The notes under the pieces are model-generated. The model worked only from the letters and a program-made list of their open reading frames with translations. It did no database searches and had not been told where the DNA came from. The position numbers and the translations under genes were made by a program. Of a DNA stretch of 44,657 nucleotides, positions 2,040 through 44,436 are shown one piece after another (within the stretch, counting starts at the first letter, position 1; each line of letters begins with the position of its first letter). The stretch comes from a virus: IMG/VR virus record IMGVR_UViG_3300045988_179769. One strand, given 5' to 3'.

Positions 2040-3197
2040 TCAAAAATTCATATACGCGGCATATTTTTCAGCAGTCTGTTCCTTGGCTTTTTCGGTTACG
2101 TGAGTATAGATGTCCATCGTGGTTTTTATATCTGTGTGACCCATTCGTTCTTGCACTTCTTTAATACTCACACCAGCTTCAAATAATAAGCTACAGTGAG
2201 TGTGTCTAAAACCGTGAATAGTAATTTTTTCTAGGTTGTGTTCCTTCAAAAAAGTTTTCATAAAATTATTCAGATAATCGAGATAAAGATGATTATTATC
2301 AATGTCGGTAAAAAGTAGTTGTTCAGGTTTGAGAGTATTAATCCCTAACTTGAGGTATCTTCTTCGTTGCTCTTTTTTCCAAGATAAAAGGTACTTAAGT
2401 GTTACCTCATCAACCGAAATAGTTCGCCGACTATGTTTCGTTTTTGGGGTCTGGAATATTTCTTTACCGTATTCACTTTTGGCCAAAGTCTGATTGACCG
2501 ATATAGTACCTTTTGATAAATCGCAATCTTTCCACCGCAGAGCTTGGAGTTCCCCTTTTCTTAAACCTGTGAACGATAGCACTCTGAACATGGTAAATAA
2601 CTGGACATCTTCATGCTGCTCAAGAATATCTAAAAAGTTCTTCAATTGCTCTTTATTATAAAAAGGTGATACATATTTTTCTTGATCAATTTTTTCGGAT
2701 TTGCGCGGACGTATAACGTGGTTCATTGGATTATTTAAGATAAGACCGATCTTGAGACCGTAATCAATAACCCTTGTTGTCAAACCGATAAGATTAGAAT
2801 ATTTTTTATAGTATGAGAACCAATCGTTCACCTGTTCTTGACAGTAAACAACTGTTATCTTGTCCAATGGAAGCGATCCGAATTTAGGTATAATGTGTTT
2901 TTCAATCGCATTTCTTTGCACAAACAGTGTGCTCTCTTTAACCGTGTTTTTGTATTGTTCATACCAGAGATCATAAATTTCTTTGAAAGTGGGAATTTCT
3001 TTTTTTTCAACAGAAAATCCGGTTTTCTCAATTTCTAATTCTAGTCTTGATAGAGCTATTTTTGCTTCCTTCTGAGTCTTGAATCCTCTCTTAGTCGTGT
3101 ACTTCTTCTTTCTTGTGAGAGGATCTATCCCAAGGTAAGTTTTGAAATACCACGCTTTTTCCCCATTTTTCTTCTTGTATTGTTTTATCATAGCCAT
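2040..3197 (-). CDS. int: Tyrosine site-specific integrase (phage integrase family)
   Basis: C-terminal catalytic region FTGLRKGEL...HGFRHTHCSLL...GHTDIKTTMDIYTHV (R..HxxR..Y). N-terminal SAM-like domain. RBS aaaggagtgataaacc before the ATG. Confidence 0.9.
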   Translation of the reverse strand: MAMIKQYKKKNGEKAWYFKTYLGIDPLTRKKKYTTKRGFKTQKEAKIALSRLELEIEKTGFSVEKKEIPTFKEIYDLWYEQYKNTVKESTLFVQRNAIEKHIIPKFGSLPLDKITVVYCQEQVNDWFSYYKKYSNLIGLTTRVIDYGLKIGLILNNPMNHVIRPRKSEKIDQEKYVSPFYNKEQLKNFLDILEQHEDVQLFTMFRVLSFTGLRKGELQALRWKDCDLSKGTISVNQTLAKSEYGKEIFQTPKTKHSRRTISVDEVTLKYLLSWKKEQRRRYLKLGINTLKPEQLLFTDIDNNHLYLDYLNNFMKTFLKEHNLEKITIHGFRHTHCSLLFEAGVSIKEVQERMGHTDIKTTMDIYTHVTEKAKEQTAEKYAAYMNF

Positions 3198-3250: not shown

Positions 3251-3667
3251 TTAGGCGTATACATCCTCGAAAATATAATGGTATAGCAACTTTCTAACAG
3301 TCGCCTCAAACTTGAGGTCCAATTCAGCAGATTCAATGAAGTAAACCGGATTGACTTGGTCTGGTTCAAGAAGATTTAATTCCATATAATCCAATAGTAA
3401 AAGGTTTACCATGAAATAATCCGCTTCATACTCCATTTTGAATCGGGGGATGGGTAATTTATATAATGGTGTAAATTCATCATGCAAAACGCCATGCCCC
3501 GCTTCGTGGTAGATAACCTTTAAAATTTCCATCTCAGAAAGGTTCTCGTTTATAAATATAGTATTGAAATCTGAATCGTAGTATCCATCAATATCCAAGT
3601 CTAAGTATTCTATAGAAATTCCTTTTGCAGCTAGTATCTTTTTAACTCTATTCATATGACAACCCAT
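3251..3667 (-). CDS. ImmA/IrrE-family zinc metallopeptidase (anti-repressor protease partner of the XRE repressor)
   Basis: HEAGH zinc-binding motif (YHEAGHGVLHDE). Lies immediately downstream of, and co-oriented with, the XRE repressor. Confidence 0.75.
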   Translation of the reverse strand: MGCHMNRVKKILAAKGISIEYLDLDIDGYYDSDFNTIFINENLSEMEILKVIYHEAGHGVLHDEFTPLYKLPIPRFKMEYEADYFMVNLLLLDYMELNLLEPDQVNPVYFIESAELDLKFEATVRKLLYHYIFEDVYA

Positions 3668-3669
3668 CC

Positions 3670-4008
3670 CTATCGATCGCTAAATTTTCCTTCCAAAAAT
3701 GCGCGTATAGTTTCTCTATCACGATCAGTCATTTCTTTACCACCGAAACTTTTCATATTATCAAGAACTTCATCTAAATCCTTAGAAGCAGGTTTAGAGC
3801 TAACTGGATTAGGATTATCAGTAATTCCTAGTAGATAGTCAGAAGATACCCCAAAGTATTCTGCAACTTTTTGTAGAGTGTCAGATTTTGGACTACTTTT
3901 TTTCCATTGATAAATAGCATTCTCGCTCAAACCCAACTTCAAAGCTAACTCTTTTAATCCTATGTGTTGTTTTTTTGCTAATAATGAAACCCTTTCGTAT
4001 ATTGACAT
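3670..4008 (-). CDS. XRE-family HTH repressor (CI-like)
   Basis: HTH IGLKELALKLGLSENAIYQWKK. Divergent from cro. Start placed at ATG 4008 (MSIYE), which has RBS gaaagga; the 4029 ATG lacks an RBS. Confidence 0.75.
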   Translation of the reverse strand: MSIYERVSLLAKKQHIGLKELALKLGLSENAIYQWKKSSPKSDTLQKVAEYFGVSSDYLLGITDNPNPVSSKPASKDLDEVLDNMKSFGGKEMTDRDRETIRAFLEGKFSDR

Positions 4009-4029
4009 CAGTAAAGATCCTTTCTGCAA

Positions 4030-4312
4030 GAAGTGTTATAGTATAAAATTTTGAGTTAAAAGTGTTTACAAACATAAAATATTATACTATACTCTTCTCG
4101 TAAGCTAATTTAATAAGCTAACAAGCAACAAGAAAGGCACCCAACTAAAAATAAACAATTCGACGTCGCCAAACTAAGAATGTTGATTTAATAGGGAAAA
4201 TTCTGCGCTTATTTAACTATGTCTATATAGTATAAAACTTTGTGTTGGTTGTCAACACAATTTAGCGAATTTAATTAGCTTACAAATCATATGAGAAAGG
4301 AGATTTAACAAT
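4030..4312. promoter_or_regulatory. cI/cro divergent promoter-operator region with repeated operator-like motifs
   Basis: TATAGTATAAAA at ~4037 and ~4230. Inverted copy ATTATACTATACT at ~4078. Perfect palindrome TTGTGTTGgttgtCAACACAA at ~4243..4263 overlapping a TTGtCA -35-like box. Confidence 0.55.
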
Positions 4313-4504
4313 ATGTCACAAGATTTTATTTTAAAAGTCAGAATCCAGTTGGCTAAATACGACAAGACACAGAACTGGCTGGCGGATACGATTGGGATTT
4401 CAAGAGCGTACATGTCCGATATTATGAACGGCAAACGGAAGCCAGATAAACAAATTGAGCCAATCGAAAACGCCTTAGCCTCATTGAAGGAGGGGAATGT
4501 CTAA
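4313..4504 (+). CDS. Cro-like XRE-family HTH regulator
   Basis: 63 aa. HTH QNWLADTIGISRAYMSDIMNG. Divergent from cI. RBS aaaggag. Confidence 0.7.
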   Translation: MSQDFILKVRIQLAKYDKTQNWLADTIGISRAYMSDIMNGKRKPDKQIEPIENALASLKEGNV

Positions 4505-4785
4505 TGGATTTGCATATACCAGATGAGTTGCTACAGAAACAAATTGCTTTTGCAATTGTGACAATAGCAACTGCCGAAATTGAAAAACGTATGAAGTTGA
4601 TGACAAAAACCTTAGAGCTACCTCCTTATCCAAATAAAAGTGAAGTGAAAAGCATTTTAGGGATGGGTGACGAAATGCTGAAAGAATGGATTGCTGAGGG
4701 TCTTCCGGTTATCCCTTGGAGTAAAAAGGAAGATCGATTTGATCGCGACGATATCAAGGCTCATATAAATAGTATGAAGATTTAG
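4504..4785 (+). CDS. Small DNA-binding protein, excisionase-like (HTH_17/MerR-like) candidate
   Basis: SILGMGDEMLKEWIAEGLPVIPWSKK resembles Xis/HTH_17 DNA-binding helices. Position follows cro. Confidence 0.35.
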   Translation: MDLHIPDELLQKQIAFAIVTIATAEIEKRMKLMTKTLELPPYPNKSEVKSILGMGDEMLKEWIAEGLPVIPWSKKEDRFDRDDIKAHINSMKI

Positions 4786-4862: not shown

Positions 4863-5144
4863 ATGGATTTTAAAACATGGAGTGAATTATTGAACGAAAA
4901 TTTAAGATTATTGAATAGAGAGTTTACGGATGCTGATTTACAGAGATTGTTCAAAGATATTGATGAAATCAAAGAAAAACAGAATTTGAACGACAATACA
5001 ATGGCCATTCTGCTTGAGGGATTTATTGTTTTAAAACTAAAGCTACCCCTTTCTGAGGAAAAGAGGCAGCAGAAGCTAAAGCAAGATCAGGATACTTTAA
5101 AAAGGTTTAATAATTATCTCAAAGGTGAAATTGATCGGACATAA
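4863..5144 (+). CDS. Hypothetical protein
   Basis: ORF with RBS gaggtg 6 nt before ATG 4863; coiled-coil-like composition. Confidence 0.45.
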   Translation: MDFKTWSELLNENLRLLNREFTDADLQRLFKDIDEIKEKQNLNDNTMAILLEGFIVLKLKLPLSEEKRQQKLKQDQDTLKRFNNYLKGEIDRT

Positions 5145-5488
5145 TCTGAAAAATCAACAATAGTCGCTTGTGGGTATTTAATCAAAAAGCTTTGAATTTG
5201 TAATGACTTGAAACCGTCTAGTAATGTTGCGGCTAAATCTACACCATATAAGCCAATGCTTTTAACAATCAAATCTTCTGTGTCCACAAACGGACTACCA
5301 TCGCATTTCAAATAATCATAGTAGCATAACTGGGCAATGCATTGTTGGACGTTTGTTCGATTATAATCTTCAAGGTTTTCATGAGAAAGGAAATCATCTA
5401 TGGTCCAATTCATTTGTTCTTTAATAGGGACTATCTTCATGATTTCCACAGCAAGTTCTAAATTTACATCCTGAGGTATGGGCATCAT
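5114..5488 (-). CDS. Hypothetical protein, reverse-strand moron in the early region
   Basis: 124-126 aa ORF on - strand. RBS aggagg + 7 nt + ATG (5488), alternative GTG at 5494. Preceded by the conserved palindromic element. Confidence 0.5.
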   Translation of the reverse strand: MMPIPQDVNLELAVEIMKIVPIKEQMNWTIDDFLSHENLEDYNRTNVQQCIAQLCYYDYLKCDGSPFVDTEDLIVKSIGLYGVDLAATLLDGFKSLQIQSFLIKYPQATIVDFSDYVRSISPLR

Positions 5489-5496
5489 CTTCACAC

Positions 5497-5544
5497 CTCC
5501 TTATCAATTATTTCAGCCGACCACTGACTGATAAGGAAATTATA
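5497..5544. promoter_or_regulatory. Conserved 48-bp palindromic element (copy A), 42/48 identical to 44389..44436
   Basis: ctccttatcaattatttcagccgaccactgactgataaggaaattata. The ccttatca/tgataagg inverted repeat includes the SD of the - strand gene. Lies in a divergent intergenic region with the Rha antirepressor. Confidence 0.6.
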
Positions 5545-5565
5545 CCAAAGAAAGGAAATTGAAAA

Positions 5566-6264
5566 ATGACAAATTTAGTAATTATGAAAGATCAGCAAGC
5601 AGTAACGACTAGCTTGCAAGTAGCAGAAACTTTTGAGAAACGTCACGATCATATTCTAAGAGATATAGATGGGATCGAAAAAGATGTCCCCAATTTTGGG
5701 GAGATGTTTGTAGAAGGCACCGAGCCAGATTCGTACGGTCGTTCAAGAAGAGTTATCTATATGAATCGTGACGGATTCACATTGTTAGCAATGGGATTCA
5801 CTGGGAAAGCTGCATTGCAGTTCAAGTTGAAATATATCGAAGCATTCAATCAAATGGAGGATCACATCAATCAACAACCACAGATTCCAAATACACCTCG
5901 AGGACTTGCCTTGCTGGCATTAGCTGCAAACGAAGAAGCGAGCCAACGTATCGATGATATCAACGAACGTCTGGTAGATATCGAAGAAAACAAACTAATC
6001 ACTACTGAAGATAAAGGGACTATCGATCGAGCGGTTCAAAAGAAAGTCTATCAGATCTGCAAGGATCAACATCTTGGACAGGGCGCAAAAAGCATGCTGT
6101 TTCAGGATTTGGGATCAAGTATCAAACAATTGTTTAGTGTTCCGAATCGTGGCCGCATCAAAGACAAAGATTTCCAAAAGGTTTTGGGGTTCATTGATCA
6201 TTGGCAGCCATCGTCAGTGACCAAGGAACGAATCAATCAGATTCAGACAGAATTGGAAATGTAG
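5566..6264 (+). CDS. Rha-family phage regulatory protein (antirepressor-like)
   Basis: N-terminus LVIMKDQQAVTTSLQVAETFEKRHDHILRDI matches the Phage_pRha signature (..vtTS..iAe.f.k.H..vlr.I). Confidence 0.65.
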   Translation: MTNLVIMKDQQAVTTSLQVAETFEKRHDHILRDIDGIEKDVPNFGEMFVEGTEPDSYGRSRRVIYMNRDGFTLLAMGFTGKAALQFKLKYIEAFNQMEDHINQQPQIPNTPRGLALLALAANEEASQRIDDINERLVDIEENKLITTEDKGTIDRAVQKKVYQICKDQHLGQGAKSMLFQDLGSSIKQLFSVPNRGRIKDKDFQKVLGFIDHWQPSSVTKERINQIQTELEM

Positions 6265-16496: not shown

Positions 16497-16530
16497 CGCA
16501 ATCGTCAGCGATAACGAAAAAAAGACCCAC
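16497..16530. terminator. Bidirectional terminator between converging + and - genes
   Basis: aaaaagacccactaggagtcttctttt, stem agac.../...gtct with T-run. Confidence 0.45.
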
Positions 16531-16790
16531 TAGGAGTCTTCTTTTGGAACTATTGAAATTCCTTGTATTTTCAGATCGACCGCAACACGTTCAGTCACTC
16601 TGACCATAAATTGTTGCTTAAGAATTTCAGAAAATTCATCAGAATACTCATTTATGTAAATACTCAGTTGTTTCAGAAATTCGTTAGGATCATCGCTTAA
16701 TTCGATGACTCGTAATGGATACATCATTTCATTAACAGCATCAATGACGGCTATTGGAACAACTGAGTTTAGATCAACAGTAATTTTCAT
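16530..16790 (-). CDS. Hypothetical 86-aa protein, reverse-strand moron inside the rightward early/middle region
   Basis: Strong RBS aggagg + 6 nt + ATG at 16790 (MKITVDL...). The longer 194-aa ORF in the table lacks an RBS. Convergent terminator at its 3' end. Confidence 0.5.
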   Translation of the reverse strand: MKITVDLNSVVPIAVIDAVNEMMYPLRVIELSDDPNEFLKQLSIYINEYSDEFSEILKQQFMVRVTERVAVDLKIQGISIVPKEDS

Positions 16791-16834
16791 ACGATCGCCT
16801 CCTATGGCGATTATATCATGGATGGAGGGATAAG

Positions 16835-17344
16835 ATGTTCGGATTAATGAAGAAGAAAAAAGATTATGATTTAGCAGATCAAATTCCAGTTGATAATCTG
16901 AAAAAATATGTGGTCCAAGGATACGAGAAAGAGAAGTCTTTGGAATTACAAATTGAAAAGAAAGATTCTGAAATTGAAAAACTTCAAAATGATCTGCAGC
17001 AATTTGAGGCCTTGAAAGTCGTACTTGAGAACAAAGAAAAAACAATTGCGGATTTGAATGGGAGACTTTACAGCATCGATCATTATAAGTCACGGATAGA
17101 AGATCTAGAGACAAAAAATAATACGCTGAAGATCGAAAAAATGCAGTTAGCGAATGAAGTCAACGATCTGAAAAGACAAGAAAAGCAAATCACTGAAAAA
17201 ATATCGGATAAAGTTTCTAAAGAAACTTCGGCTGCAATTAAATTGAATCTGAAAAAGAAGGTCTTGGGGATCAAAGGTAATCTTAGCAAAGGGCAAGTCA
17301 TTAATTTGATTGATCAAATCCAACAGATTGAACAGGAGGGATAA
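16835..17344 (+). CDS. Coiled-coil hypothetical protein
   Basis: RBS ggatggaggg. Heptad-rich K/E sequence. Confidence 0.45.
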   Translation: MFGLMKKKKDYDLADQIPVDNLKKYVVQGYEKEKSLELQIEKKDSEIEKLQNDLQQFEALKVVLENKEKTIADLNGRLYSIDHYKSRIEDLETKNNTLKIEKMQLANEVNDLKRQEKQITEKISDKVSKETSAAIKLNLKKKVLGIKGNLSKGQVINLIDQIQQIEQEG

Positions 17345-19787: not shown

Positions 19788-19815
19788 AAGTCTCTTAAAT
19801 CAGAGGCTTTTTTAT
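19788..19815. terminator. Rho-independent terminator
   Basis: aagtctctt-aaatc-agaggctt stem (with a G-U pair) followed by ttttatttt. Confidence 0.5.
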
Positions 19816-19829
19816 TTTGGGAGGAAACT

Positions 19830-21101
19830 ATGAAGATATCAAAAATGAAACTCGCTGATCTTAAAGCGGCTGATTACAATCCTAGAATTGATTTAAAACC
19901 AGGGATGGAAGAGTATGAAAAACTTAAAAGTTCTATTCTTGAGTTCGGCTTTGTTGATCCACCAATCTTCAACATACGGACAGGCAACCTTGTGGGCGGC
20001 CATCAGCGCATCGCTGTGGCTCGTGATTTGGGCTTGTTTGACGAGATAGAGGTATCAACCGTAGATTTACACCTTGAGAAGGAAAAAGCTCTCAATTTGG
20101 CTCTCAATAAGATTTCCGGCAGATGGGATGAAGAGAAATTAGCTATTCTTTTAAAAGAGCTAAGTGAAGAAGATGTTTCTTTAAGTGGTTTTGACCTTGA
20201 AGAAGTTGAAGATTTAATTGCGGCTTTTGATTATCAAGAAGATATTAATCAACCAATTGTTGAAGACGACTTTGATGTGAATCAATTTATTGAAGACCAT
20301 CCAGAACCTAAAACAAAACGTGGCCAATTATGGCAACTAGGTAATCATTTTTTGCTTTGTGGAGATTCGACGGATCAAACTGATGTTGATCGCTTAATGC
20401 AAGGAAATAAAGCAGACTTAGTTGTAACGGATCCGCCTTACAACGTTGCAGTTAAATCTACAAGTGAGGAACTAACGAACACCGGACGTGGGGAAATTCT
20501 AAACGATAACATGGATCACGATGCATTCGTGGGCTTTTTAGAGCAAGTCTTTCTTAATTACGCGCAACTCATGCATGATCAAGCGGCAATTTATGTTTTT
20601 CATGGATCGTCATACCAACGTGAGTTTGAAAATGCGATGAATGCTGCAGAAATTGACGTTAGAGCACAATGTATTTGGGTCAAGAACAATGCGACCTTTG
20701 GGTGGAGTCAATACCGTTGGCAACACGAACCAGTATTTTATGCATACCGTAGAGGCCAATCTCCGGATTGGTATGGCGATAGAAAACAAACTACTGTCTG
20801 GAAAGATGATTTGATCCAAGATATCCCGGATGTGAGTATCTGGCAAATCGCTAAAGATGATGCAATGAAATACTATCATCCAACACAGAAGCCGCTATCT
20901 CTCATCGCAATTCCGGTGAGAAATAGCTCGAAACGTCAAGATATAGTTGTGGATCTCTTTGGAGGATCCGGAAGTACGTTAATGACTTGCGAACAGCTGC
21001 AGCGAAAGTGTTTCACAATGGAGCTTGATCCGATCTTTTGCGATGTGATCATTGAGAGATGGGAAAAAGCGACTGGAAAAACCGCAGTTTTAATAAATTA
21101 G
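19830..21101 (+). CDS. ParB-like nuclease domain fused to a beta-class N6A/N4C DNA methyltransferase (orphan MTase)
   Basis: N-terminal ParB motif GGHQRIAVARDLG. Motif IV VVTDPPYNVA. C-terminal motif I VVDLFGGSGST. No cognate restriction gene in the genome. Confidence 0.8.
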   Translation: MKISKMKLADLKAADYNPRIDLKPGMEEYEKLKSSILEFGFVDPPIFNIRTGNLVGGHQRIAVARDLGLFDEIEVSTVDLHLEKEKALNLALNKISGRWDEEKLAILLKELSEEDVSLSGFDLEEVEDLIAAFDYQEDINQPIVEDDFDVNQFIEDHPEPKTKRGQLWQLGNHFLLCGDSTDQTDVDRLMQGNKADLVVTDPPYNVAVKSTSEELTNTGRGEILNDNMDHDAFVGFLEQVFLNYAQLMHDQAAIYVFHGSSYQREFENAMNAAEIDVRAQCIWVKNNATFGWSQYRWQHEPVFYAYRRGQSPDWYGDRKQTTVWKDDLIQDIPDVSIWQIAKDDAMKYYHPTQKPLSLIAIPVRNSSKRQDIVVDLFGGSGSTLMTCEQLQRKCFTMELDPIFCDVIIERWEKATGKTAVLIN

Positions 21102-21293
21102 GTTATAGAGCTCACTTTTGGGAACTTGCAACGAAGTCATTTGAAAGGAGCTTATTAATAAAAAGAGGCCGGTGCGCTAACACCGACCCTTTCCACGAGG
21201 ATCGCTCCCCGAAGACACAGAGAATGCCCACGCGTGGTCTTTCGATACCCTCTGTATCTTTTAGCATTATATCTAATGCGGGGTGCTTGCACA

Positions 21294-21500
21294 ATGGGAA
21301 CAGAAGATTTTGATTTTGAGTATGAACTAAAAAAGGCAGAAGAGAGAGCTGAAACGGTTGATGAGTATAAACGAATTATTCGAGTTGCACTTGGAAAATG
21401 GCTGTCCAATCTCCAATCTGGCGAAATCAAACTCAATTCTGTAAGTGATTTGAAAGTTTTAATTGAAGCAGATTTGATGCTTAAAGATATAGAAAATTAG
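21294..21500 (+). CDS. Hypothetical protein
   Basis: ORF following the GC-rich island; start uncertain (21276 or 21294). Confidence 0.3.
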   Translation: MGTEDFDFEYELKKAEERAETVDEYKRIIRVALGKWLSNLQSGEIKLNSVSDLKVLIEADLMLKDIEN

Positions 21501-21547
21501 AGAAACAAAACTCAACTAATTAGTGATCGCGAGGTGGTGTGTATTGA

Positions 21548-22366
21548 ATGGCTAGGCAACGAGACCCAAGAAGGGATCAAGCAAAAGAAATTTGGTTGAA
21601 ATCTAATGGCGAAAAGCTTTTGAAAGAAATTGCAGAAGAGCTAGGTGTTTCTGATTCTCAAATTCGGAAGTGGAAATCTCAGGATAAGTGGGCAGCAGAA
21701 TTGAAAGGTAATGTTACCAATGCGAAAAGTAACGTTACCAATCGAGGTGGCGCACCGCCAGGAAATCAAAATGCCAAAGGAAACAAAGGGAACAAACAGG
21801 CATCTCCGCCATCAGGCAATAAAAATGCTCTGAAAACAGGTGAATATGAAACCATATTTGCGGACTATCTAACTGAAGAAGAGAAGGATCTTTATTCGAA
21901 TTTGAATGATGATCCTTTTTTTGTTATGTCAGAAGAAATACGGCTGCTAAAAGTTCGGCAAGTTCGAATGATGAAGCGCATCGCTACTGCAGAATCCGGG
22001 TTGACTGAAAAAGAGACAGAACAGCTTTTTGAGCTACGAGGACGCAAGACACTGATTGAATCAAAAAAATTCGGTCGGAAAGTTCAGGTCGACGTTCCAG
22101 AGCTTGTGCTAACAGAAGAGAAAACTAAAAGCTTTCGAAAACTCGATGACATTTTAGCAATCGAGGATGCACTCACTCGTGTCAGCGCTCAGCTACAGCG
22201 AGCAGTAAAGCAGCTTGCTGATTTGACGATGAATGACAAACGTGGTCAATTGATCGATGCTCAGATTGATCACACGAAAGCACAGACGACTAAAGCCCTA
22301 ATCAATAAGGACGGCGATGAAAATGATGGCGGAACTGTTATCAACATCATCGACGATATTGGGTGA
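21548..22366 (+). CDS. terS: Terminase small subunit
   Basis: N-terminal HTH IAEELGVSDSQIRKWK. GAPPGNQNAKGNKGNK...GNKNALKTGEY motifs characteristic of Gram-positive phage TerS. RBS gcgaggtgg. Confidence 0.7.
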   Translation: MARQRDPRRDQAKEIWLKSNGEKLLKEIAEELGVSDSQIRKWKSQDKWAAELKGNVTNAKSNVTNRGGAPPGNQNAKGNKGNKQASPPSGNKNALKTGEYETIFADYLTEEEKDLYSNLNDDPFFVMSEEIRLLKVRQVRMMKRIATAESGLTEKETEQLFELRGRKTLIESKKFGRKVQVDVPELVLTEEKTKSFRKLDDILAIEDALTRVSAQLQRAVKQLADLTMNDKRGQLIDAQIDHTKAQTTKALINKDGDENDGGTVINIIDDIG

Positions 22367-23646
22367 TCGGCATGGCTAAAGTGGTAACACAAAAAAATGT
22401 AAAACTCACTGATGTCTTGGCTCCTTCATTTTATTTATTCCACAAAGCAGTAAAAGACGGATTGCATTCTTCGTATTGGTTAAAAGGCGGTCGCGGATCA
22501 ACAAAATCGTCAGCTATTTCAGTTGAAATTATCCTCGGGATTGAGAAAGATTCGAACGCCAACGCAGTTGTTTTACGGAAGGTAGCTGAAACACTTCGAG
22601 AATCAGTCTATGAACAAATGCTGTGGGCGATTGACATTCTTGGATTAACCGATGAATATCATGCATCAGTCAAGCCGCTACGAATAACTAAAATTAAGAC
22701 AGGTCAACGCATCATCTTCAAAGGTGCTGAAAAGCCGAAAAAGGTAAAGGCATCAAAATTCCGCCGAGGTTATGCAAAGTATATTTGGTATGAGGAAGTC
22801 GATGAGTTCAACTCAATGGCTGAAATTAGAACGATCAACCAATCTCTTGGGCGTGGTGGTGCAGGCATCACCATCTTCTATTCGTTCAATCCACCGGAAA
22901 GTAATACTAATTGGACGAACCTAGAGATTCAACAGCAACAAGTTCGTGATGAGGTTTTTGTCCATCACAGCGATTACAGGACAGTTCCGAAAGAATGGTT
23001 AGGGGAATTGTTCATCCAAGAGGCAGAACACCTTAAGAAGACGAATGAGGACAAATACAAGCATGAGTATTTAGGTGAGGTGACTGGTACAGGTGCAGAA
23101 GTATTTAAGAATGTCACTGTCCGTAAAATCACTGATGAAGAAATTGCAAGCTTTGATAAAGTAGCGCACGGTATCGACCACGGTTACGCTGGGGATCCGA
23201 TGCACTACACGAAAAATCATTTCGACAAGACGCGGCGTAAGCTTTATATATTCGGAGAGGTTCATAAAGTGGGGTTGTCTAATCTTAAGGCAGTTTCAGC
23301 AATTAGAAAACTAAATCCTGATAATGAAATTGTTATAGCAGATAGTGCTGAACCTAGAACAAATAATGAATTCAAAGATCTAGGATTGAAGATAAAAGGA
23401 GCCAAAAAAGGACCTGGTTCTATCGAACACGGAATCAAATGGCTGCAAGATCTGGAAGAAATTATTATCGATCCGTATCGTTGTCCAAATACTAAGCGAG
23501 AATTTTCAACTTATGAACTGGAACGAGATTCTAACGGAAATCTTAAGGGGTCTTATCCAGATAAAAATAACCACTCGATTGATGCTGTTCGCTACTCTAG
23601 AGAAGAAGAGATGAAGAAACCAGCCAAAATAAAAATTATGAAATAG
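22363..23646 (+). CDS. terL: Terminase large subunit, PBSX/XtmB family (headful packaging)
   Basis: Walker A LKGGRGSTKSSAIS. Nuclease domain with conserved acidic residues. Immediately follows terS. Confidence 0.85.
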   Translation: MIGMAKVVTQKNVKLTDVLAPSFYLFHKAVKDGLHSSYWLKGGRGSTKSSAISVEIILGIEKDSNANAVVLRKVAETLRESVYEQMLWAIDILGLTDEYHASVKPLRITKIKTGQRIIFKGAEKPKKVKASKFRRGYAKYIWYEEVDEFNSMAEIRTINQSLGRGGAGITIFYSFNPPESNTNWTNLEIQQQQVRDEVFVHHSDYRTVPKEWLGELFIQEAEHLKKTNEDKYKHEYLGEVTGTGAEVFKNVTVRKITDEEIASFDKVAHGIDHGYAGDPMHYTKNHFDKTRRKLYIFGEVHKVGLSNLKAVSAIRKLNPDNEIVIADSAEPRTNNEFKDLGLKIKGAKKGPGSIEHGIKWLQDLEEIIIDPYRCPNTKREFSTYELERDSNGNLKGSYPDKNNHSIDAVRYSREEEMKKPAKIKIMK

Positions 23647-23659
23647 GAGGTGTTGCGAT

Positions 23660-25051
23660 TTGGATATTGAAACAGTCAAAAAAATCATAAGCGAGAATCT
23701 GAAAGGTTTTCCTAGCAGAGTACAAAAAATTAGAAAATCAGAACTCTATTATGAAAATAAAAACGACATCTTACGTAGGCGAAATCCTTTAGCTGAAAGA
23801 ATTAAAGATAAGGATCCTGACAATCCTCTGAGGAACGCAGATAATCGTATTAGTCATTCCTTCCATCAGTTGCTAGTCAACCAAAAGGCAGCATATGCAA
23901 TGACGGTGCCGCCTTTGTTTGACGTTGATGATAAGACATTGAATCAAGAGATTGTAAAACTCTTAGGTGATGTATATCCTAAAGTGGCAAAGGACCTATG
24001 CATCAATGCTAGTAACGCAGGGATTGCATGGTTACATGTGTGGAGAGATGAAGAACATCAGAATTTCTTTCGATATGCGGTCATTGATTCGAAGCAGATC
24101 ATACCGATTTACTCCAAGCGATTATCTAATCAATTAGAAGGAATTTTGAGAGTGTATGAGGATTATGATGATGCGGGAGATGTTTTATTGGTTTATGAGT
24201 ATTGGAATAACGAAGAGTGTAGTGCTTATTCTAGAAAAAAAAGCAAGACACTCGATAGTCTAGAGGAATACGAGGTATTTAATCTCATAGATATTGCAAC
24301 GAATCAACCAGCGGGCGCAACAAATACTTATAAACACGGATGGTCAAGATTACCATTCATTCCTTTGAGAAATAATCCTCTACAACAACCAGATTTGGAA
24401 ATGTACAAAGCTTTGATTGACGTCTACGACAAGGTCTTTTCTGGTTTTGTTAATGATGTTGACGATATTCAAGAAATCATTTATGTGTTGACCAATTATG
24501 GTGGGGAAGATAAAAAGGAATTCTTGAATGACTTGAAAAAATACAAAATGGTTCAGGTCGAAGATGATGGCCAAGGAGCTAAAGGAGGGGTTGAGACACT
24601 CGCTATTGATATTCCAATTGAAGCACGATCAAAGATTTTGGAAATGACACGAGATAGCATATTTGTCCACGGACAAGGTGTGGATCCTCAGAAAAATATT
24701 GGCCAGAACAACAGCGGTGCTGCTTTAAAATATATGTACTCATTACTAGAGCTTAAAGCGTCGATGTTAGAAACAGAATTCCGTTTAGGATTCGCTGAAT
24801 TGGTCCGATTTATTCTAGAATATTCTGGCAAAGATGCGAACGTTACAATTAAACAGACATGGACTCGTTCTGCAATCAACAATGACCTTGAACAAGCGGA
24901 CATTGTCAGCAAACTTGCTCCAGTGACGAGCGAAGAGAATCTTGCCAAGGCTAACCCGATTGTTGAGAATTGGGAGACAGAGGTCGCAAATCTAAAAGAG
25001 GAGCGTCAAAAAGAATATCGAGGAGAGGATGATTATCGACCGGAGGAATGA
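23660..25051 (+). CDS. Portal protein
   Basis: 463 aa, position after TerL. RBS aggagg + TTG start. Confidence 0.7.
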   Translation: MDIETVKKIISENLKGFPSRVQKIRKSELYYENKNDILRRRNPLAERIKDKDPDNPLRNADNRISHSFHQLLVNQKAAYAMTVPPLFDVDDKTLNQEIVKLLGDVYPKVAKDLCINASNAGIAWLHVWRDEEHQNFFRYAVIDSKQIIPIYSKRLSNQLEGILRVYEDYDDAGDVLLVYEYWNNEECSAYSRKKSKTLDSLEEYEVFNLIDIATNQPAGATNTYKHGWSRLPFIPLRNNPLQQPDLEMYKALIDVYDKVFSGFVNDVDDIQEIIYVLTNYGGEDKKEFLNDLKKYKMVQVEDDGQGAKGGVETLAIDIPIEARSKILEMTRDSIFVHGQGVDPQKNIGQNNSGAALKYMYSLLELKASMLETEFRLGFAELVRFILEYSGKDANVTIKQTWTRSAINNDLEQADIVSKLAPVTSEENLAKANPIVENWETEVANLKEERQKEYRGEDDYRPEE

Positions 25052-25056
25052 TCTAA

Positions 25057-26070
25057 ATGAGATATTGGCAAAAGCGTTACCTGCAGATTTCGATTGATCG
25101 TGATCGAAAGGACCAAGATTATATCCGACAGATGCAAAAAGAATACAGGCGTTTATCAAAGTCAATGTACAAAGAGATAAAAGGATGGATCGACCGATAT
25201 GCCGATAACGATCAAATTTCATCTAAAGAAGCACATCAGATTTTGTCCAAGAAAGAACAAAAGACCTGGTCAATGACATTGGAGCAATTCCGGCAAAAAG
25301 CAATATCGGGCGGTTACGAGCAAGAGTTAAATCGTGAGTATTTCAAGTCAAGGATCAGCCGTCTTGAACAACTACAGCGACAGCTTTACTTCGAACTTGC
25401 CGAGATGGCAAACAATCAAGAAGCAGCGCTGCAATCATATTTAAAAGAATCACTTAATGAGAGCTACCTGCGTCAGATCTATGAGCTGACCGATCAGGGT
25501 GCTTTTTCTTTGGACTTTAGTCGGTATAGTAGCTATGCATTGCAAGTGGCCATATCCAAACCGTGGAAAGGAAATAACTTTTCAGGAAGAATTTGGAAAA
25601 ACCATCTAAAAACCATTCCGGATCGCTTGTCAAAAACGATGTCCTTATCAATCCTACATGGCTGGGGCGTGGATCGTACGGTCAAAGAAATGATGTTTGG
25701 AATCGATTCTGTGTTGCGTAATAGAATGACAACTCTAGTCCAAACTGAATCGGCACACTTAGCTGAAGTGGCCAATGATAAAGCAATGGCTGAAACTGGA
25801 GTAAAGGAGTGGGAATGGCTTGCTACTCTTGAAGCTCATACCTGTGATCGATGTGGTGAATTTGATGGTAAGACTTCAAAAGAGTTGAAGGAGAAGCTTG
25901 GATACATTCCCAGTTGTCCGGATCACCCGAATTGTCGTTGTACTCGTGTTCCTGTCATAAATGGGTGGAAATCTAAGTCAAGATGGCAGAGAGATCCAAT
26001 CACTGGTAAAGGTTCAGTTGAGGATTATCAAACGTTCAATCAATGGAAAAGGAATGCCCTCTATGGATGA
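25057..26070 (+). CDS. Head morphogenesis protein (Mu gpF / SPP1 gp7-like)
   Basis: LVQTESAHLAEVANDKAMAETGVKEWEW...CDRCGEF...CPDHPNCRC: Mu-F-like domain with C-terminal zinc motif. Confidence 0.7.
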   Translation: MRYWQKRYLQISIDRDRKDQDYIRQMQKEYRRLSKSMYKEIKGWIDRYADNDQISSKEAHQILSKKEQKTWSMTLEQFRQKAISGGYEQELNREYFKSRISRLEQLQRQLYFELAEMANNQEAALQSYLKESLNESYLRQIYELTDQGAFSLDFSRYSSYALQVAISKPWKGNNFSGRIWKNHLKTIPDRLSKTMSLSILHGWGVDRTVKEMMFGIDSVLRNRMTTLVQTESAHLAEVANDKAMAETGVKEWEWLATLEAHTCDRCGEFDGKTSKELKEKLGYIPSCPDHPNCRCTRVPVINGWKSKSRWQRDPITGKGSVEDYQTFNQWKRNALYG

Positions 26071-26217
26071 TGATGAACTAGAAGAAGTATGGGAACTAGA
26101 GGATTTAGGTATTTTATAGTCTAGCTTGCTAGGCTTTTTGTTTTGTCAAAAATCGACCGGAACGTCGTTAAACTACCAAATCCAACCGGTGTCGTTGCAC
26201 CGTAAAATCTCGAAAGG

Positions 26218-26811
26218 ATGAACAATATGAAAAGAGAAGAGCTAAAAAAAATAGGACTGTCTGATGAGCAAATGGATGCGGTGATGGCAGCACATGGCCA
26301 AACTGTTCAATCACTTAACACTCAGATTGCTACATTACAACAGTCAGAAACAGATTTAAAAGGACAATTGTCTAGTCGTGATAAGGATCTTGCTAAGTTA
26401 CAAAAAGACAATAAAGACAACGAAGAACTGCTAGGGCAGATTGATTCTTTGAAGAAGCAATATAAAGACCTAGAGAAAACCAGTAACGATAATTTAGTAA
26501 AAATTCAACGAGAGTCAGCGTTAAACTCTTTACTAGTTGAATCGAAAGTAAAAAATCCTAAAGCTGTCGCTGCATTGTTAGATGATGAAAAAATTGTCTT
26601 TAAAGAAGGAGAATTATCTGGAGCAAAAGAACAGATTGAAGCTCTACAAAAGTCTGATGCGTATCTGTTTGATATGGGCACCAAGCCGGGAGGATACAAT
26701 CCACCTGCAGGACAGGCTGCAACAAATTACGCTTCTTTTGACGAAGCTATGGAAAAAGGTGACGTGGATGGTTTTTTGCGTCAACAAATTGAAAGTGAGG
26801 AAAATGAATAA
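26218..26811 (+). CDS. Scaffolding protein
   Basis: Coiled-coil, acidic, 197 aa, directly upstream of the capsid gene. Confidence 0.6.
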   Translation: MNNMKREELKKIGLSDEQMDAVMAAHGQTVQSLNTQIATLQQSETDLKGQLSSRDKDLAKLQKDNKDNEELLGQIDSLKKQYKDLEKTSNDNLVKIQRESALNSLLVESKVKNPKAVAALLDDEKIVFKEGELSGAKEQIEALQKSDAYLFDMGTKPGGYNPPAGQAATNYASFDEAMEKGDVDGFLRQQIESEENE

Positions 26812-27839
26812 TGGCGAATGAAATTACAAAAATTCTGGATACTATTACTCCGGAACAGTATACAAAATATACAAATTGGTACGCAGAGCAACACTCGGCG
26901 TTCATTCAATCGGGTATCTTAGTACCAACACCAACTTTAGATCAAATGATCGTAGCAGGTGGGCTGTTAGTTACAATGCCCGAATGGAGTAAGACAGCGC
27001 TAGTTGATCAAGTCTTAGCTGAAGACAAAGCTCTAGAAACTGGTAAAACCAGTGCTGACAAACAAGTAGCACCAGTACTTTACCGTGGAACGGGGGCAGC
27101 GTATACGGATCTTGCCGCAATCACTGCTGGATCTAATCCTGCAACTCAGATTTTAAGTGACTTTGGTGTATATACAATCGAATCTGACCAAGAAATTTTG
27201 CAAGCAATCATCAAAGCGTTGTTCGCAAAAGGAACAGGACAAAACAAAGGGGCATTGGCTGATTCTCACGTATCAGATCAATCTGCGGCCAAAAATCCAG
27301 TGATCTGTCCTGAAATGGTTATTGATGCACGGTCGATTTTGGGAACTTCTCGAAGCAAGTTATCAGTGATCGCAATGCATTCTAAAGTAAAAGCAGAACT
27401 GGAAAAGCAAAATACTCAAACAAAACATTTTATTCCCGCAAGTGACTCTAAGTCTGGATTTGATACGTATCTCGGTATGCGTGTTGTAGAAGATGATGCA
27501 TTACTACCAAATACAGATGGTATTTATGAAACCTATCTTTATGCTACAGGTGCCTTTGGTCGAAATACTGCAACACCAGCAGACATGGTGACTTATGAAC
27601 CTGATCGTGATAAAGCAAAAGGAAATAACATGCTTTATGTTCGACGCGCTCGTGTAATTCATCCTTTCGGCTTGGCTTTTGAAAATGCTCAAGTTTCAGG
27701 GCTAACGCCAACAAATGCTGATCTAGCTTTACCTAAAAATTGGAAGAAAGTTCGCGAGGATAAGAAGATTGGTTTGGTTTGTTTGCGGCACAAAATCAGT
27801 GCTGATTTAGAAGAAACGACGCCAACAACTGAAGGATAA
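26811..27839 (+). CDS. Major capsid protein
   Basis: 342 aa. Position scaffold -> capsid. Strong RBS agtgaggaaaatgaataATG. Confidence 0.65.
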   Translation: MANEITKILDTITPEQYTKYTNWYAEQHSAFIQSGILVPTPTLDQMIVAGGLLVTMPEWSKTALVDQVLAEDKALETGKTSADKQVAPVLYRGTGAAYTDLAAITAGSNPATQILSDFGVYTIESDQEILQAIIKALFAKGTGQNKGALADSHVSDQSAAKNPVICPEMVIDARSILGTSRSKLSVIAMHSKVKAELEKQNTQTKHFIPASDSKSGFDTYLGMRVVEDDALLPNTDGIYETYLYATGAFGRNTATPADMVTYEPDRDKAKGNNMLYVRRARVIHPFGLAFENAQVSGLTPTNADLALPKNWKKVREDKKIGLVCLRHKISADLEETTPTTEG

Positions 27840-43674: not shown

Positions 43675-43920
43675 ATGAAATTGACGAACACGCAATATGA
43701 TTTAGCAAAAAAAGTTTTAACCGTTGGGGTGCCAGGAATCACGGCATTTATCGTAACTTTAGGCGGTTTATATGGATTCTCAACAGAAATCATTGTTGGA
43801 ACGATCACGGCTGCTGCAACTTTAGCTGGTGTGTTCTTGAATATCGCTAGCAGCCAGTATCAAGATGAACAAAAACCAGATTACGGCGATGGACAGGAGT
43901 TCACAGAAAAAAAGGAGTAG
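43675..43920 (+). CDS. Holin (two-TM)
   Basis: 81 aa, two hydrophobic segments (GVPGITAFIVTLGGLYGF; IVGTITAAATLAGVFLNIA), charged C-terminus; lysis cassette position. Confidence 0.6.
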   Translation: MKLTNTQYDLAKKVLTVGVPGITAFIVTLGGLYGFSTEIIVGTITAAATLAGVFLNIASSQYQDEQKPDYGDGQEFTEKKE

Positions 43921-43961: not shown

Positions 43962-44171
43962 ATGAAACGAGAAATTTTAAAGCAGTTTGAAGAACTAGAG
44001 GATCTAGTGGATATCGAAATCAAGAATATTGCCAGTAAATTATTGGAAGAATATTCCACTTATCAAGAAGCAGTGGAGGCTTTGAATGATTACTATCGCA
44101 GTCGATTTAAACTAGACGATCATGTCTATTCTGAAATCCACAAAAAAATGATTGCACAAGCAACTAAGTAA
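43962..44171 (+). CDS. Small acidic hypothetical protein between holin and endolysin
   Basis: RBS gaaaggatgatgaaaaa before ATG; 69 aa. Confidence 0.4.
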   Translation: MKREILKQFEELEDLVDIEIKNIASKLLEEYSTYQEAVEALNDYYRSRFKLDDHVYSEIHKKMIAQATK

Positions 44172-44194
44172 TAGCAGCCAGCGCAATCATTCTT

Positions 44195-44380
44195 TTAATC
44201 CGGGATACCTCTCATCCTATTTTGTTGACGTTGCTTGTGAGAAATGTTTTCAGAAACATGTTTCGCTAAATCACGATCTTTGGAGAATTCTTTCAAAATC
44301 TTTTCCAATGCCAAAGAAAGCTCTTTTGATTGAGCGACACCATGTTCAGAAAGTATTTGTTCAATCCGTTCTGCTCTCAT
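44195..44380 (-). CDS. Hypothetical 61-aa protein, reverse-strand moron preceded by the conserved palindromic element
   Basis: RBS aggag + 8 nt + ATG (44380) on the - strand, located inside element copy B. Confidence 0.45.
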   Translation of the reverse strand: MRAERIEQILSEHGVAQSKELSLALEKILKEFSKDRDLAKHVSENISHKQRQQNRMRGIPD

Positions 44381-44388
44381 AATTAAAT

Positions 44389-44436
44389 CTCCTTATCAGT
44401 TATTTCAGTGGACCACTCACTGATAAGGAGAGTATA
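44389..44436. promoter_or_regulatory. Conserved 48-bp palindromic element (copy B)
   Basis: ctccttatcagttatttcagtggaccactcactgataaggagagtata. 12-bp perfect stem ctccttatcagt/actgataaggag with inner palindrome agtggaccact. 42/48 identical to 5497..5544. Confidence 0.6.

Follow-up and report, generated by a model that had tools for sequence, protein, structure and literature searches.

The window analysed here is the whole stretch of 44,657 nucleotides (nt) of the IMG/VR virus record IMGVR_UViG_3300045988_179769, which is a temperate phage of an Enterococcus. It contains two non-coding 48-mers, at 5497-5544 (site A) and 44389-44436 (site B), which differ in six positions counted by eye. The identity of 42/48 given in a sequence-only reading of this DNA was thus confirmed. 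Both copies are located directly upstream of an open reading frame (ORF) on the minus strand, named cargo A and cargo B in the following (Table 1). As had been reported there, the two proteins are unrelated and the neighbours on the plus strand are Rha (Phage_pRha and ORF6C) and an endolysin (Amidase_2). In the cargo sense, i.e. on the minus strand of the window, the centre of the element is an inner hairpin with a stem of 6 base pairs (bp) and a loop of 7 nt. Selection acts on this hairpin in the cargo-sense RNA.

Structure and conservation of the leader

Ninety distinct leaders from a family of related elements were examined in a gapless alignment (A2), with the inner helix in columns 13-18 and 26-31 and a longer outer helix in columns 8-17 and 36-45. 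For the inner helix 99.4% of the cells were paired, and 60 cells with double changes were counted, compared with 17.3 ± 5.9 after shuffling (0/500). The covariation score was 0.319 versus 0.133 for shuffled alignments (0/500). When the register was slid as a control, 25-40% of the cells were paired. Seven variants of the top two pairs occur, all of them able to pair (CG/CG, CA/UG, UC/GG, UC/GA, UG/CA, UA/UA and CU/AG), and in a diverged copy a lower stem pair is changed from A-U to G-C. Three of the six differences between the two window copies fall into these top pairs as well, and pairing is kept (CAGUC...GGCUG in site A, CAGUG...CACUG in site B). Furthermore, U.G pairs were found in 18 cells of the inner stem. 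On the complementary strand these would be A.C, hence the helix belongs to the cargo-sense RNA. RNAalifold, used without guidance, returned only the inner hairpin, and for the window copies it is the minimum-free-energy (MFE) fold if the RNA begins at or after the predicted transcription start.

The complete leader reads [TG]nTATAAT, 6-7 variable nt and (U)UAUCAG-NN-AGUGGUC-NN-CUGAAAUA(A), followed by 3-12 variable nt, the Shine-Dalgarno sequence (SD) AAGG(U/A)GGUGA, 5-8 nt and the start codon. In all classes a TATAAT-like box, often with TG, is positioned 6-7 nt from UAUCAG. Upstream of this -10 box the sequence is entirely different between the classes, with TTGTGA-16-TATAAT in one class and TG-extended -10 boxes in others. 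Such divergence is expected for a promoter and not for a transcribed structure. The candidate promoters of the window, TGGTATAAT at site A and TGATATACT at site B, were recognised by sequence consensus; their distance from the leader is constant, and they are conserved between the classes. From the usual spacing of 7 nt, transcription is predicted to start at the A of AUCAG, so that at both sites a single nt would precede the helix in the transcript. The distance between hairpin and -10 box is fixed within 1 nt, while that between hairpin and SD is variable. Thus, the hairpin appears to be tied to the 5' end of the RNA and not to the ribosome binding site (RBS).

Beside the structure, parts of the sequence are conserved. 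Most of the new copies obtained with an unspecified loop in the search pattern still contained AGUGGUC. With all fetched loci pooled, this loop was present in 113 of 124 distinct contexts among the matches listed; the other loops were mostly one base off (AAUGGUC in four copies, AGCGGUC in two, other variants as single cases). With a free 3' flank CUGAAAUA was kept and its last base alone varied, and with a free 5' half UAUCAG was kept in 158/162 of the matches listed. Constraint on the sequence is therefore seen in the loop, the three lower pairs and the short flanks; the top pairs, the discriminator and the spacer are unconstrained. The near-invariant loop and flanks suggest a sequence-specific binding partner. 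One candidate is the 3' tail of 16S rRNA, which contains GAUCAC: the loop bases GUGGUC could form six pairs with it, including one G.U. This match was noticed post hoc, the rarer loop variants weaken the pairing, and a contact between loop and 16S tail is speculative.

Some other features of the element were considered and rejected. A mini-ORF GUG-GUC-NNC-UGA, starting in the loop, is conserved in the hairpin (5513-5524 and 44405-44416, minus strand); it has no SD and is probably coincidental. A role as terminator was rejected for both strands, as no U-run follows the stem. Only weak matches to the consensus (9/12) were present for a plus-strand promoter inside the element serving Rha or the lysin. 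A link to tRNA was rejected, too: there is a likeness between the loop and a tRNA D-loop, tRNA-like RNAs adjoin class-2 copies, and these RNAs are not called by ARAGORN and Rfam. The tRNA-like non-coding elements themselves are located on the phage strand and adjoin class-2 promoters. Sixty distinct copies were found. Their 5' part GTCACTGTGGCGGAAAGGGTAGACGC is constant, as is the T-arm with its 7-bp acceptor (GCAAGGTTCGATTCCTTGCCAGTGAC), and between the two lies a stretch of 30-65 nt that varies from copy to copy. They have a cloverleaf-like fold, and some are in tandem, followed by further hairpins and a terminator. Examples, all outside the window, are at 4440-4672 (-) in locus L056, at about 12320 and about 12537 (-) in L007 and at 2530 and 2727 (+) in L047.

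Within the window the element is restricted to the two sites. The degenerate 38-mer CCTTATCARTTATTTCAGNNGACCACTNACTGATAAGG matched only at 5499-5536 and 44391-44428 and gave no match in 100 shuffles. A covariance model made from the family likewise returned exactly two matches, with 72 bits for site A and 66.3 bits for site B. The features of both sites and of their surroundings are given in Table 1. For the 8-kb stretch 19800-27800 no near match was detected among deposited phages. Another ORF of 194 amino acids (aa) on the minus strand (16530-17114), inside the plus-strand early/replication region, has no Pfam match and no copy of the leader.

Table 1 Positions of the features of both sites and of neighbouring genes in the window
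Feature	Position	Strand	Remark
Integrase	2040-3197	-	
ImmA	3251-3667	-	
CI-like repressor	3670-4029	-	
Cro-like	4313-4504	+	
Terminator-like 12-pair hairpin and T-run after cargo A	5042-5070	-	
Cargo A, 124 aa	5114-5488	-	No assigned function; translation
Site A, SD AGGAGGUG	5494-5501	-	7 nt before ATG 5488; read directly
Site A, conserved single-stranded AAUAA tail	5508-5512	-	With A5513 the AAAUAA of CUGAAAUAA
Site A, hairpin, stem UCAGUC/GGCUGA (one U.G), loop AGUGGUC	5531-5526 with 5518-5513, loop 5525-5519	-	
Site A, long palindrome	5499-5536, arms 5499-5508 and 5527-5536		Real in this copy, not the conserved structure
Site A, predicted transcription start A	5532	-	7th nt past the -10 hexamer; usual sigma-A spacing of -10 box and start
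Site A, candidate extended -10 promoter TGG-TATAAT	TATAAT 5544-5539, TG 5547-5546	-	Consensus match only
Rha (Phage_pRha and ORF6C)	5566-6264	+	
Dp-1 holin	43675-43920	+	
Cargo B, 61 aa	44195-44380	-	No assigned function, PHROG 12161; translation, third-position substitutions
Site B, SD AAGGAGA	44388-44394	-	7 nt before ATG 44380; read directly
Site B, hairpin, stem UCAGUG/CACUGA, loop AGUGGUC	44423-44418 with 44410-44405, loop 44417-44411	-	
Site B, long palindrome	44391-44428, arms 44391-44400 and 44419-44428		Not the conserved structure
Site B, predicted transcription start A	44424	-	From -10 spacing
Site B, candidate extended -10 promoter TGA-TATACT	TATACT 44436-44431, TG 44439-44438	-	Register as site A; consensus match
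Amidase_2 lysin	from 44467	+	

Element family and cargo genes

At least about 140 distinct copies of the element were collected from IMG/VR viral contigs and GenBank phages. Three scans of IMG/VR with exact patterns gave at least 120 matches each, and among the copies with a callable cargo ORF 113 distinct leader sequences were counted. A scan with one genome per species resulted in 29 loci from about 23 named species. Nearly all belong to Enterococcus (about 20 named species or strains); the other hosts are Vagococcus fluvialis and Pisciglobus halotolerans. Among deposited phages, the element was identified by BLAST in phiFL1A-3B (two copies each), EG-TP1, 4995_1 and vB_ElaS_B1578. The search in other phages, which the sequence-only reading had recommended as a check, thus showed its presence in related phages.

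Several records with the element carry other host names. Contigs labelled Stenotrophomonas, Streptomyces and Flavobacterium (L133, L134 and L151), two of them with just 606 and 1155 bases, are probably contamination. The element was also detected in PQ554527 'Acinetobacter phage D2SVT' (H11/H53) and in 'Listeria phage LM 4-11-1/4-14-1' (H51/H52, UNVERIFIED_ORG). For all records labelled with these five genera the host labels or the assemblies look doubtful.

In the GenBank phage records examined there was no annotation of any kind at the element. No family of Rfam 15 reached its gathering score in the window, and at E<=10 only chance-level matches were obtained for 5400-5620 (mir-184 with 23.7 bits, 54.1 being needed). 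A literature search by sequence string yielded nothing relevant to the motif, and in the accessible main texts and supplements of published enterococcal transcription start site maps the motif is neither mentioned nor contained. As far as could be found, there is no description of a covarying leader with conserved loop that dozens of unrelated prophage genes have in common.

Clustering of the 123 cargo ORFs (45-225 aa) gave 47 groups unrelated to each other. Only DUF1508, YjzC, DUF2513, DUF1883 and DUF2321 were matched in Pfam, all PHROG matches were of 'unknown function', and a sequence search of the PDB gave no meaningful relative. Neither window cargo has a Pfam match; for cargo A, no match in PHROG or PDB and no relatives in viral contigs were detected either. 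Cargo A is identical to a 'hypothetical protein [Enterococcus sp.]' on 17 contigs, where the 50-nt leader is identical, too. For a homologue with 73% identity (locus L208, 2400-2505), TGtTATAAT and the SD AAGGUGGUGA are present without hairpin. The hairpin is thus a separable insert in an ordinary unit of promoter and SD, and the leader of L208 (TGtTATAAT and AAGGTGGTGA) is a natural 'hairpin-deleted' cassette. In the same locus a promoter-like stretch at 2190-2230 (TTGATATAATTCTCCTGTCAG...) resembles the class-1 promoter with discriminator and has no hairpin core; possibly, this is another leader or a degenerate one.

Homologues of cargo B follow the same leader in L102, L155 and EG-TP1. Substitutions against two homologues are found at third codon positions in 12/19 and 7/9 cases, and these positions are the second positions of an overlapping plus-strand ORF. 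Hence, the minus strand is the true coding strand of cargo B. In the record of EG-TP1 (L002) the plus-strand coding sequence gp37 is annotated at 2769-2978, opposite the cargo B homologue and the conserved leader. For its equivalent in the window, the plus-strand ORF 44152-44382, the pattern of substitutions gives no support, and the strand annotation of gp37 is probably wrong.

Each stem variant precedes up to 23 cargo families. Since the families are shuffled among the variants, the cassette recombines as a module. Of 136 contexts that could be assessed, 69 have neighbour genes mainly on the strand opposite to the cargo and 62 are mixed; those mixed contexts looked at adjoin the lysogeny module, which shares the orientation of the cargo. 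Within 150 nt, terminator-like signals were found for 54/120 cargo genes (45%) compared with 5/120 (4%) on the opposite strand. Copies are present in at least three hot spots, i.e. next to rha/ant, between holin and lysin and before terminase/portal, and in the same hot spots (cro/ant region, holin-lysin, pre-terminase) different cargo follows the same leader. In AE4_2 (L207) a diverged copy with the loop AGUGCUU was found at about 1500-1565, before a small reverse gene between portal and large terminase. The cassette is thus also inserted inside the packaging module.

Morons are autonomous units of promoter, gene and terminator in temperate phages, for example HK97 gp15; the concept is that of Juhala and Hendrix. 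In the accessible text of PMC6356687, HK97 gp15 is cited as an example, too. With the orientation of the lysogeny genes and a frequent terminator, the cargo genes described here look like classic morons. A functional and conserved non-coding leader in front of reverse-strand morons with uncharacterised cargo, as proposed by the sequence-only reading, is therefore supported.

Function of the hairpin

With middling confidence, the 48-mer is regarded as the core of a portable moron cassette, with a 5'-terminal hairpin that stabilises or marks the mRNA. In this mechanism a host promoter of the sigma-A type with extended -10 box would fire, and the transcript would begin with the A of AUCAG. Its first 20 nt or so would fold into U-CAG-NN / AGUGGUC / NN-CUG-A, followed by the A-rich tail (AAUA), the variable spacer, the strong SD and the cargo ORF. 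The hairpin at the extreme 5' end and the strong ribosome site nearby would shield the mRNA from 5'-end-dependent decay, as in aprE. This would result in robust, context-independent expression of any attached cargo in lysogens. The hairpin may additionally be read by its sequence, with a protein or the 3' tail of 16S rRNA as candidates.

We infer that the hairpin is positioned at the extreme 5' end and protects the mRNA. A stabiliser would explain why its distance from the start site is constant, why it has to pair and why it is used with any cargo. Stabilisation of Bacillus subtilis mRNAs by 5' stem-loops and 5'-proximal ribosome binding is covered by references in the accessible part of the review PMC3997798. 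As an analogy, constitutive expression from their own promoters in lysogens was described for the morons of V583 prophage 6 (PMC6356687).

Several points weigh against this interpretation. The stem is short, with a predicted energy of about -5 to -8 kcal/mol, and the z-scores of short leaders are unremarkable. The covariation is effectively carried by about seven stem variants and one change in the lower stem, and many copies are related by descent. The copies were gathered with exact-match patterns, which introduces an ascertainment bias and under-samples their diversity; freeing each segment in turn served as partial control. The position of the transcript start is a prediction from the -10 box, and a terminator was not detected for cargo B. 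Pure protection needs neither a conserved loop nor the flanks UAUCAG and CUGAAAUA, so stabilisation alone under-explains the conservation.

The strongest alternative is clearly less probable than stabilisation or marking of the mRNA but has to be taken seriously. According to it, the hairpin mainly binds a conserved trans factor, i.e. a host or phage RNA-binding protein or an RNA, by which all morons with the hairpin are switched together, e.g. between lysogeny and induction. The near-invariance of AGUGGUC, UAUCAG and CUGAAAUA, beside two top pairs and surroundings that vary freely, is in favour of such a factor, and the lower three stem pairs, which almost never vary, suggest readout of the sequence. 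The absence of the hairpin from an otherwise similar cassette shows that it is separable. Restriction to Enterococcus, Vagococcus and Pisciglobus would fit a lineage-specific partner, and this Enterococcaceae-like host range is compatible with a host factor. However, no candidate factor was found, no gene is consistently linked to the copies, which occur at no fewer than three different genome positions, and their homogeneity could partly reflect recent spread by recombination. Both explanations overlap, as binding of a factor could itself stabilise the mRNA. In its more specific form, the hairpin would be the address tag of a post-transcriptional regulon, where one enterococcal or phage factor reads AGUGGUC on its stem, possibly together with the ribosome via the 16S tail; this form is a tentative proposal, and roughly one chance in four is a fair description of our trust in it.

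The sequence-only reading had proposed a translational switch, in which the long palindrome CCUUAUCAG...CUGAUAAGG hides the SD and for which the inner hairpin would be the 'on' conformer. This explanation is improbable. The description as inverted repeat with conserved loop was partly correct: the 10-bp outer repeat is real in both window copies, but what had been taken for its loop contains the true conserved hairpin. Folding of the minus-strand leaders, a check suggested with the proposal, gave results depending on the start of the RNA. With a start at least 7 nt upstream of UAUCAG the long helix is the MFE fold (-17.8 and -13.6 kcal/mol, z -3.3 and -2.3), and the SD is paired with a probability of 0.97 in the UCCU subclass. 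Inner and outer helix share CAG and are mutually exclusive, which speaks for a switch. For the window copies, however, the long helix is the MFE fold only if the RNA starts upstream of CC. With the predicted start the SD is free, its mean pairing probability being 0.22 compared with 0.67 if the RNA began 8 nt further upstream. Since the outer 5' arm shares sequence with the promoter discriminator, transcription should miss most of it; with the predicted start, AUCAG is all that remains of this arm in the RNA.

The family-wide data are also not in agreement with the switch. For the outer helix of the 90 leaders 67.6% of the cells were paired versus 66.5% after shuffling, with no excess of double changes. 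Its covariation score was 0.132 versus 0.126 (110/500), and the register was not distinguished from a slide by +3. Duplexes of discriminator and SD flank gave -3.63 kcal/mol with the own partner and -3.48 ± 0.14 kcal/mol with permuted partners (72/500), so this test was negative. In the largest subclass (UUUAGUUAUCAGCG ... AUUAAAAGG) the outer arms do not pair, and mutated outer 3' arms such as CUGACAAGG are not compensated. Moreover, the fully formed helix covers AAGG and not the remainder of GGAGGUG. Hence, a conserved helix pairing the SD, by which an SD-sequestering switch or RNA thermometer is recognised, was not found, and the long palindrome is a feature of a subclass and not the functional core.

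Little probability is also assigned to a model of antisense or interference, in which reverse promoter and hairpin would damp read-through of antirepressor or lysin in lysogens, either by a kissing loop of AGUGGUC with its perfect complement in the antisense hairpin or by collision of polymerases. In favour of it, the cassettes lie in antisense orientation within early and late operons, immediately before Rha/Ant or the endolysin, and the transcript of cargo B, ending at no terminator, would run antisense into the holin region. Kissing-loop contacts in antisense control usually use loops of 7 nt, the size found here. On the other hand, many cargo genes have terminators and many copies adjoin other genes or an RNA gene. 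Every pair of sense and antisense is complementary, therefore the model leaves the conservation of the loop unexplained.

Least probable of all is a DNA operator, the second proposal of the sequence-only reading, with a dimeric regulator (CI, Cro, Rha or a host factor) binding the double strand over the moron start or controlling the divergent Rha or lysin: the fixed position relative to the -10 box, overlapping +1 to +35 as is typical of operators, the approximate dyad symmetry (TATCAG / CTGA-ATA) and the divergent intergenic regions of the window copies would fit, but compensatory changes and U.G pairs have no rationale in a double-stranded site, asymmetry is seen in the centre (AGTGGTC) and, with an extra A, in the 3' half, and the phage-sense neighbours (Rha, Ant, lysin, tRNA-like RNA, portal) are unrelated. 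Neither did the element behave as a CI/Cro-type operator, as it does not track the repressor (just 44% identity of the CI-like repressors among prophages with the identical 50-nt leader) and has no related site in the cI-cro region (4030-4312) or elsewhere in the window beyond the two copies.

Significance and comparison with known systems

Many small genes with no assigned function are carried by the prophages of enterococci, which are major pathogens in hospitals. One searchable leader in front of at least 47 unrelated families in more than 20 species is thus a handle for cataloguing prophage accessory genes, among them possible defence, anti-defence or fitness factors. The motif suggests one shared control of expression for these morons. 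If the loop has a dedicated partner, a new pair of regulatory RNA and factor would be at hand; if the hairpin is a stabiliser only, it would be a compact natural promoter/5' untranslated region (UTR) part for expression in Enterococcus. As an address tag, it would represent a new class of cis-regulatory RNA and a flag for genes of lysogenic conversion, defence and anti-defence. Furthermore, probable strand mis-annotations in deposited phage genomes are corrected.

Short conserved non-coding motifs directly upstream of unrelated phage genes are also known from the SAS/ESAS of Cluster K mycobacteriophages and from acr-aca loci, and such motifs can flag accessory genes. SAS/ESAS are sequence motifs located at the RBS, for which no RNA helix has been demonstrated, and the aca operators are DNA inverted repeats bound by a helix-turn-helix protein of the same locus. 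In contrast, the signal described here is an RNA helix, and no regulator gene is linked to it. Another short promoter-proximal hairpin of temperate phages with variable stem is the boxB of lambda-type nut sites, whose GNRA-like pentaloop is read by sequence. Here the loop has 7 nt, and neither a boxA nor an N-like protein was identified. A single gene, usually with terminator, comes immediately after the hairpin, so there is nothing obvious to antiterminate, which argues against a nut site.

With classical morons the units share small accessory genes between phage genes, an own promoter, often an own terminator, the orientation for expression from the prophage and diverse, mostly unassigned functions. 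The difference is that dozens of unrelated morons share one leader with a covarying hairpin. To our knowledge, a shared structured 5' UTR has not been described for classical morons.

The closest agreement of the leader is with mRNA stabilisers such as those of B. subtilis aprE, E. coli ompA and papA, B. thuringiensis cryIIIA (STAB-SD) and phage SP82 (references in the accessible part of PMC3997798). In both cases the hairpin is positioned 1-2 nt from the 5' end, for the element by prediction, a short A/U-rich spacer and a very strong SD follow, and the unit is portable across coding sequences. Conservation of structure and not of sequence is characteristic of stabilisers. Here the structure covaries as well, yet loop and lower stem are also conserved in sequence; the known stabilisers need neither conserved loop nor conserved flanks, and the stem described here has just 6 bp. 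In general, the element is a member of no Rfam family and would work like a moron with an aprE-type leader.

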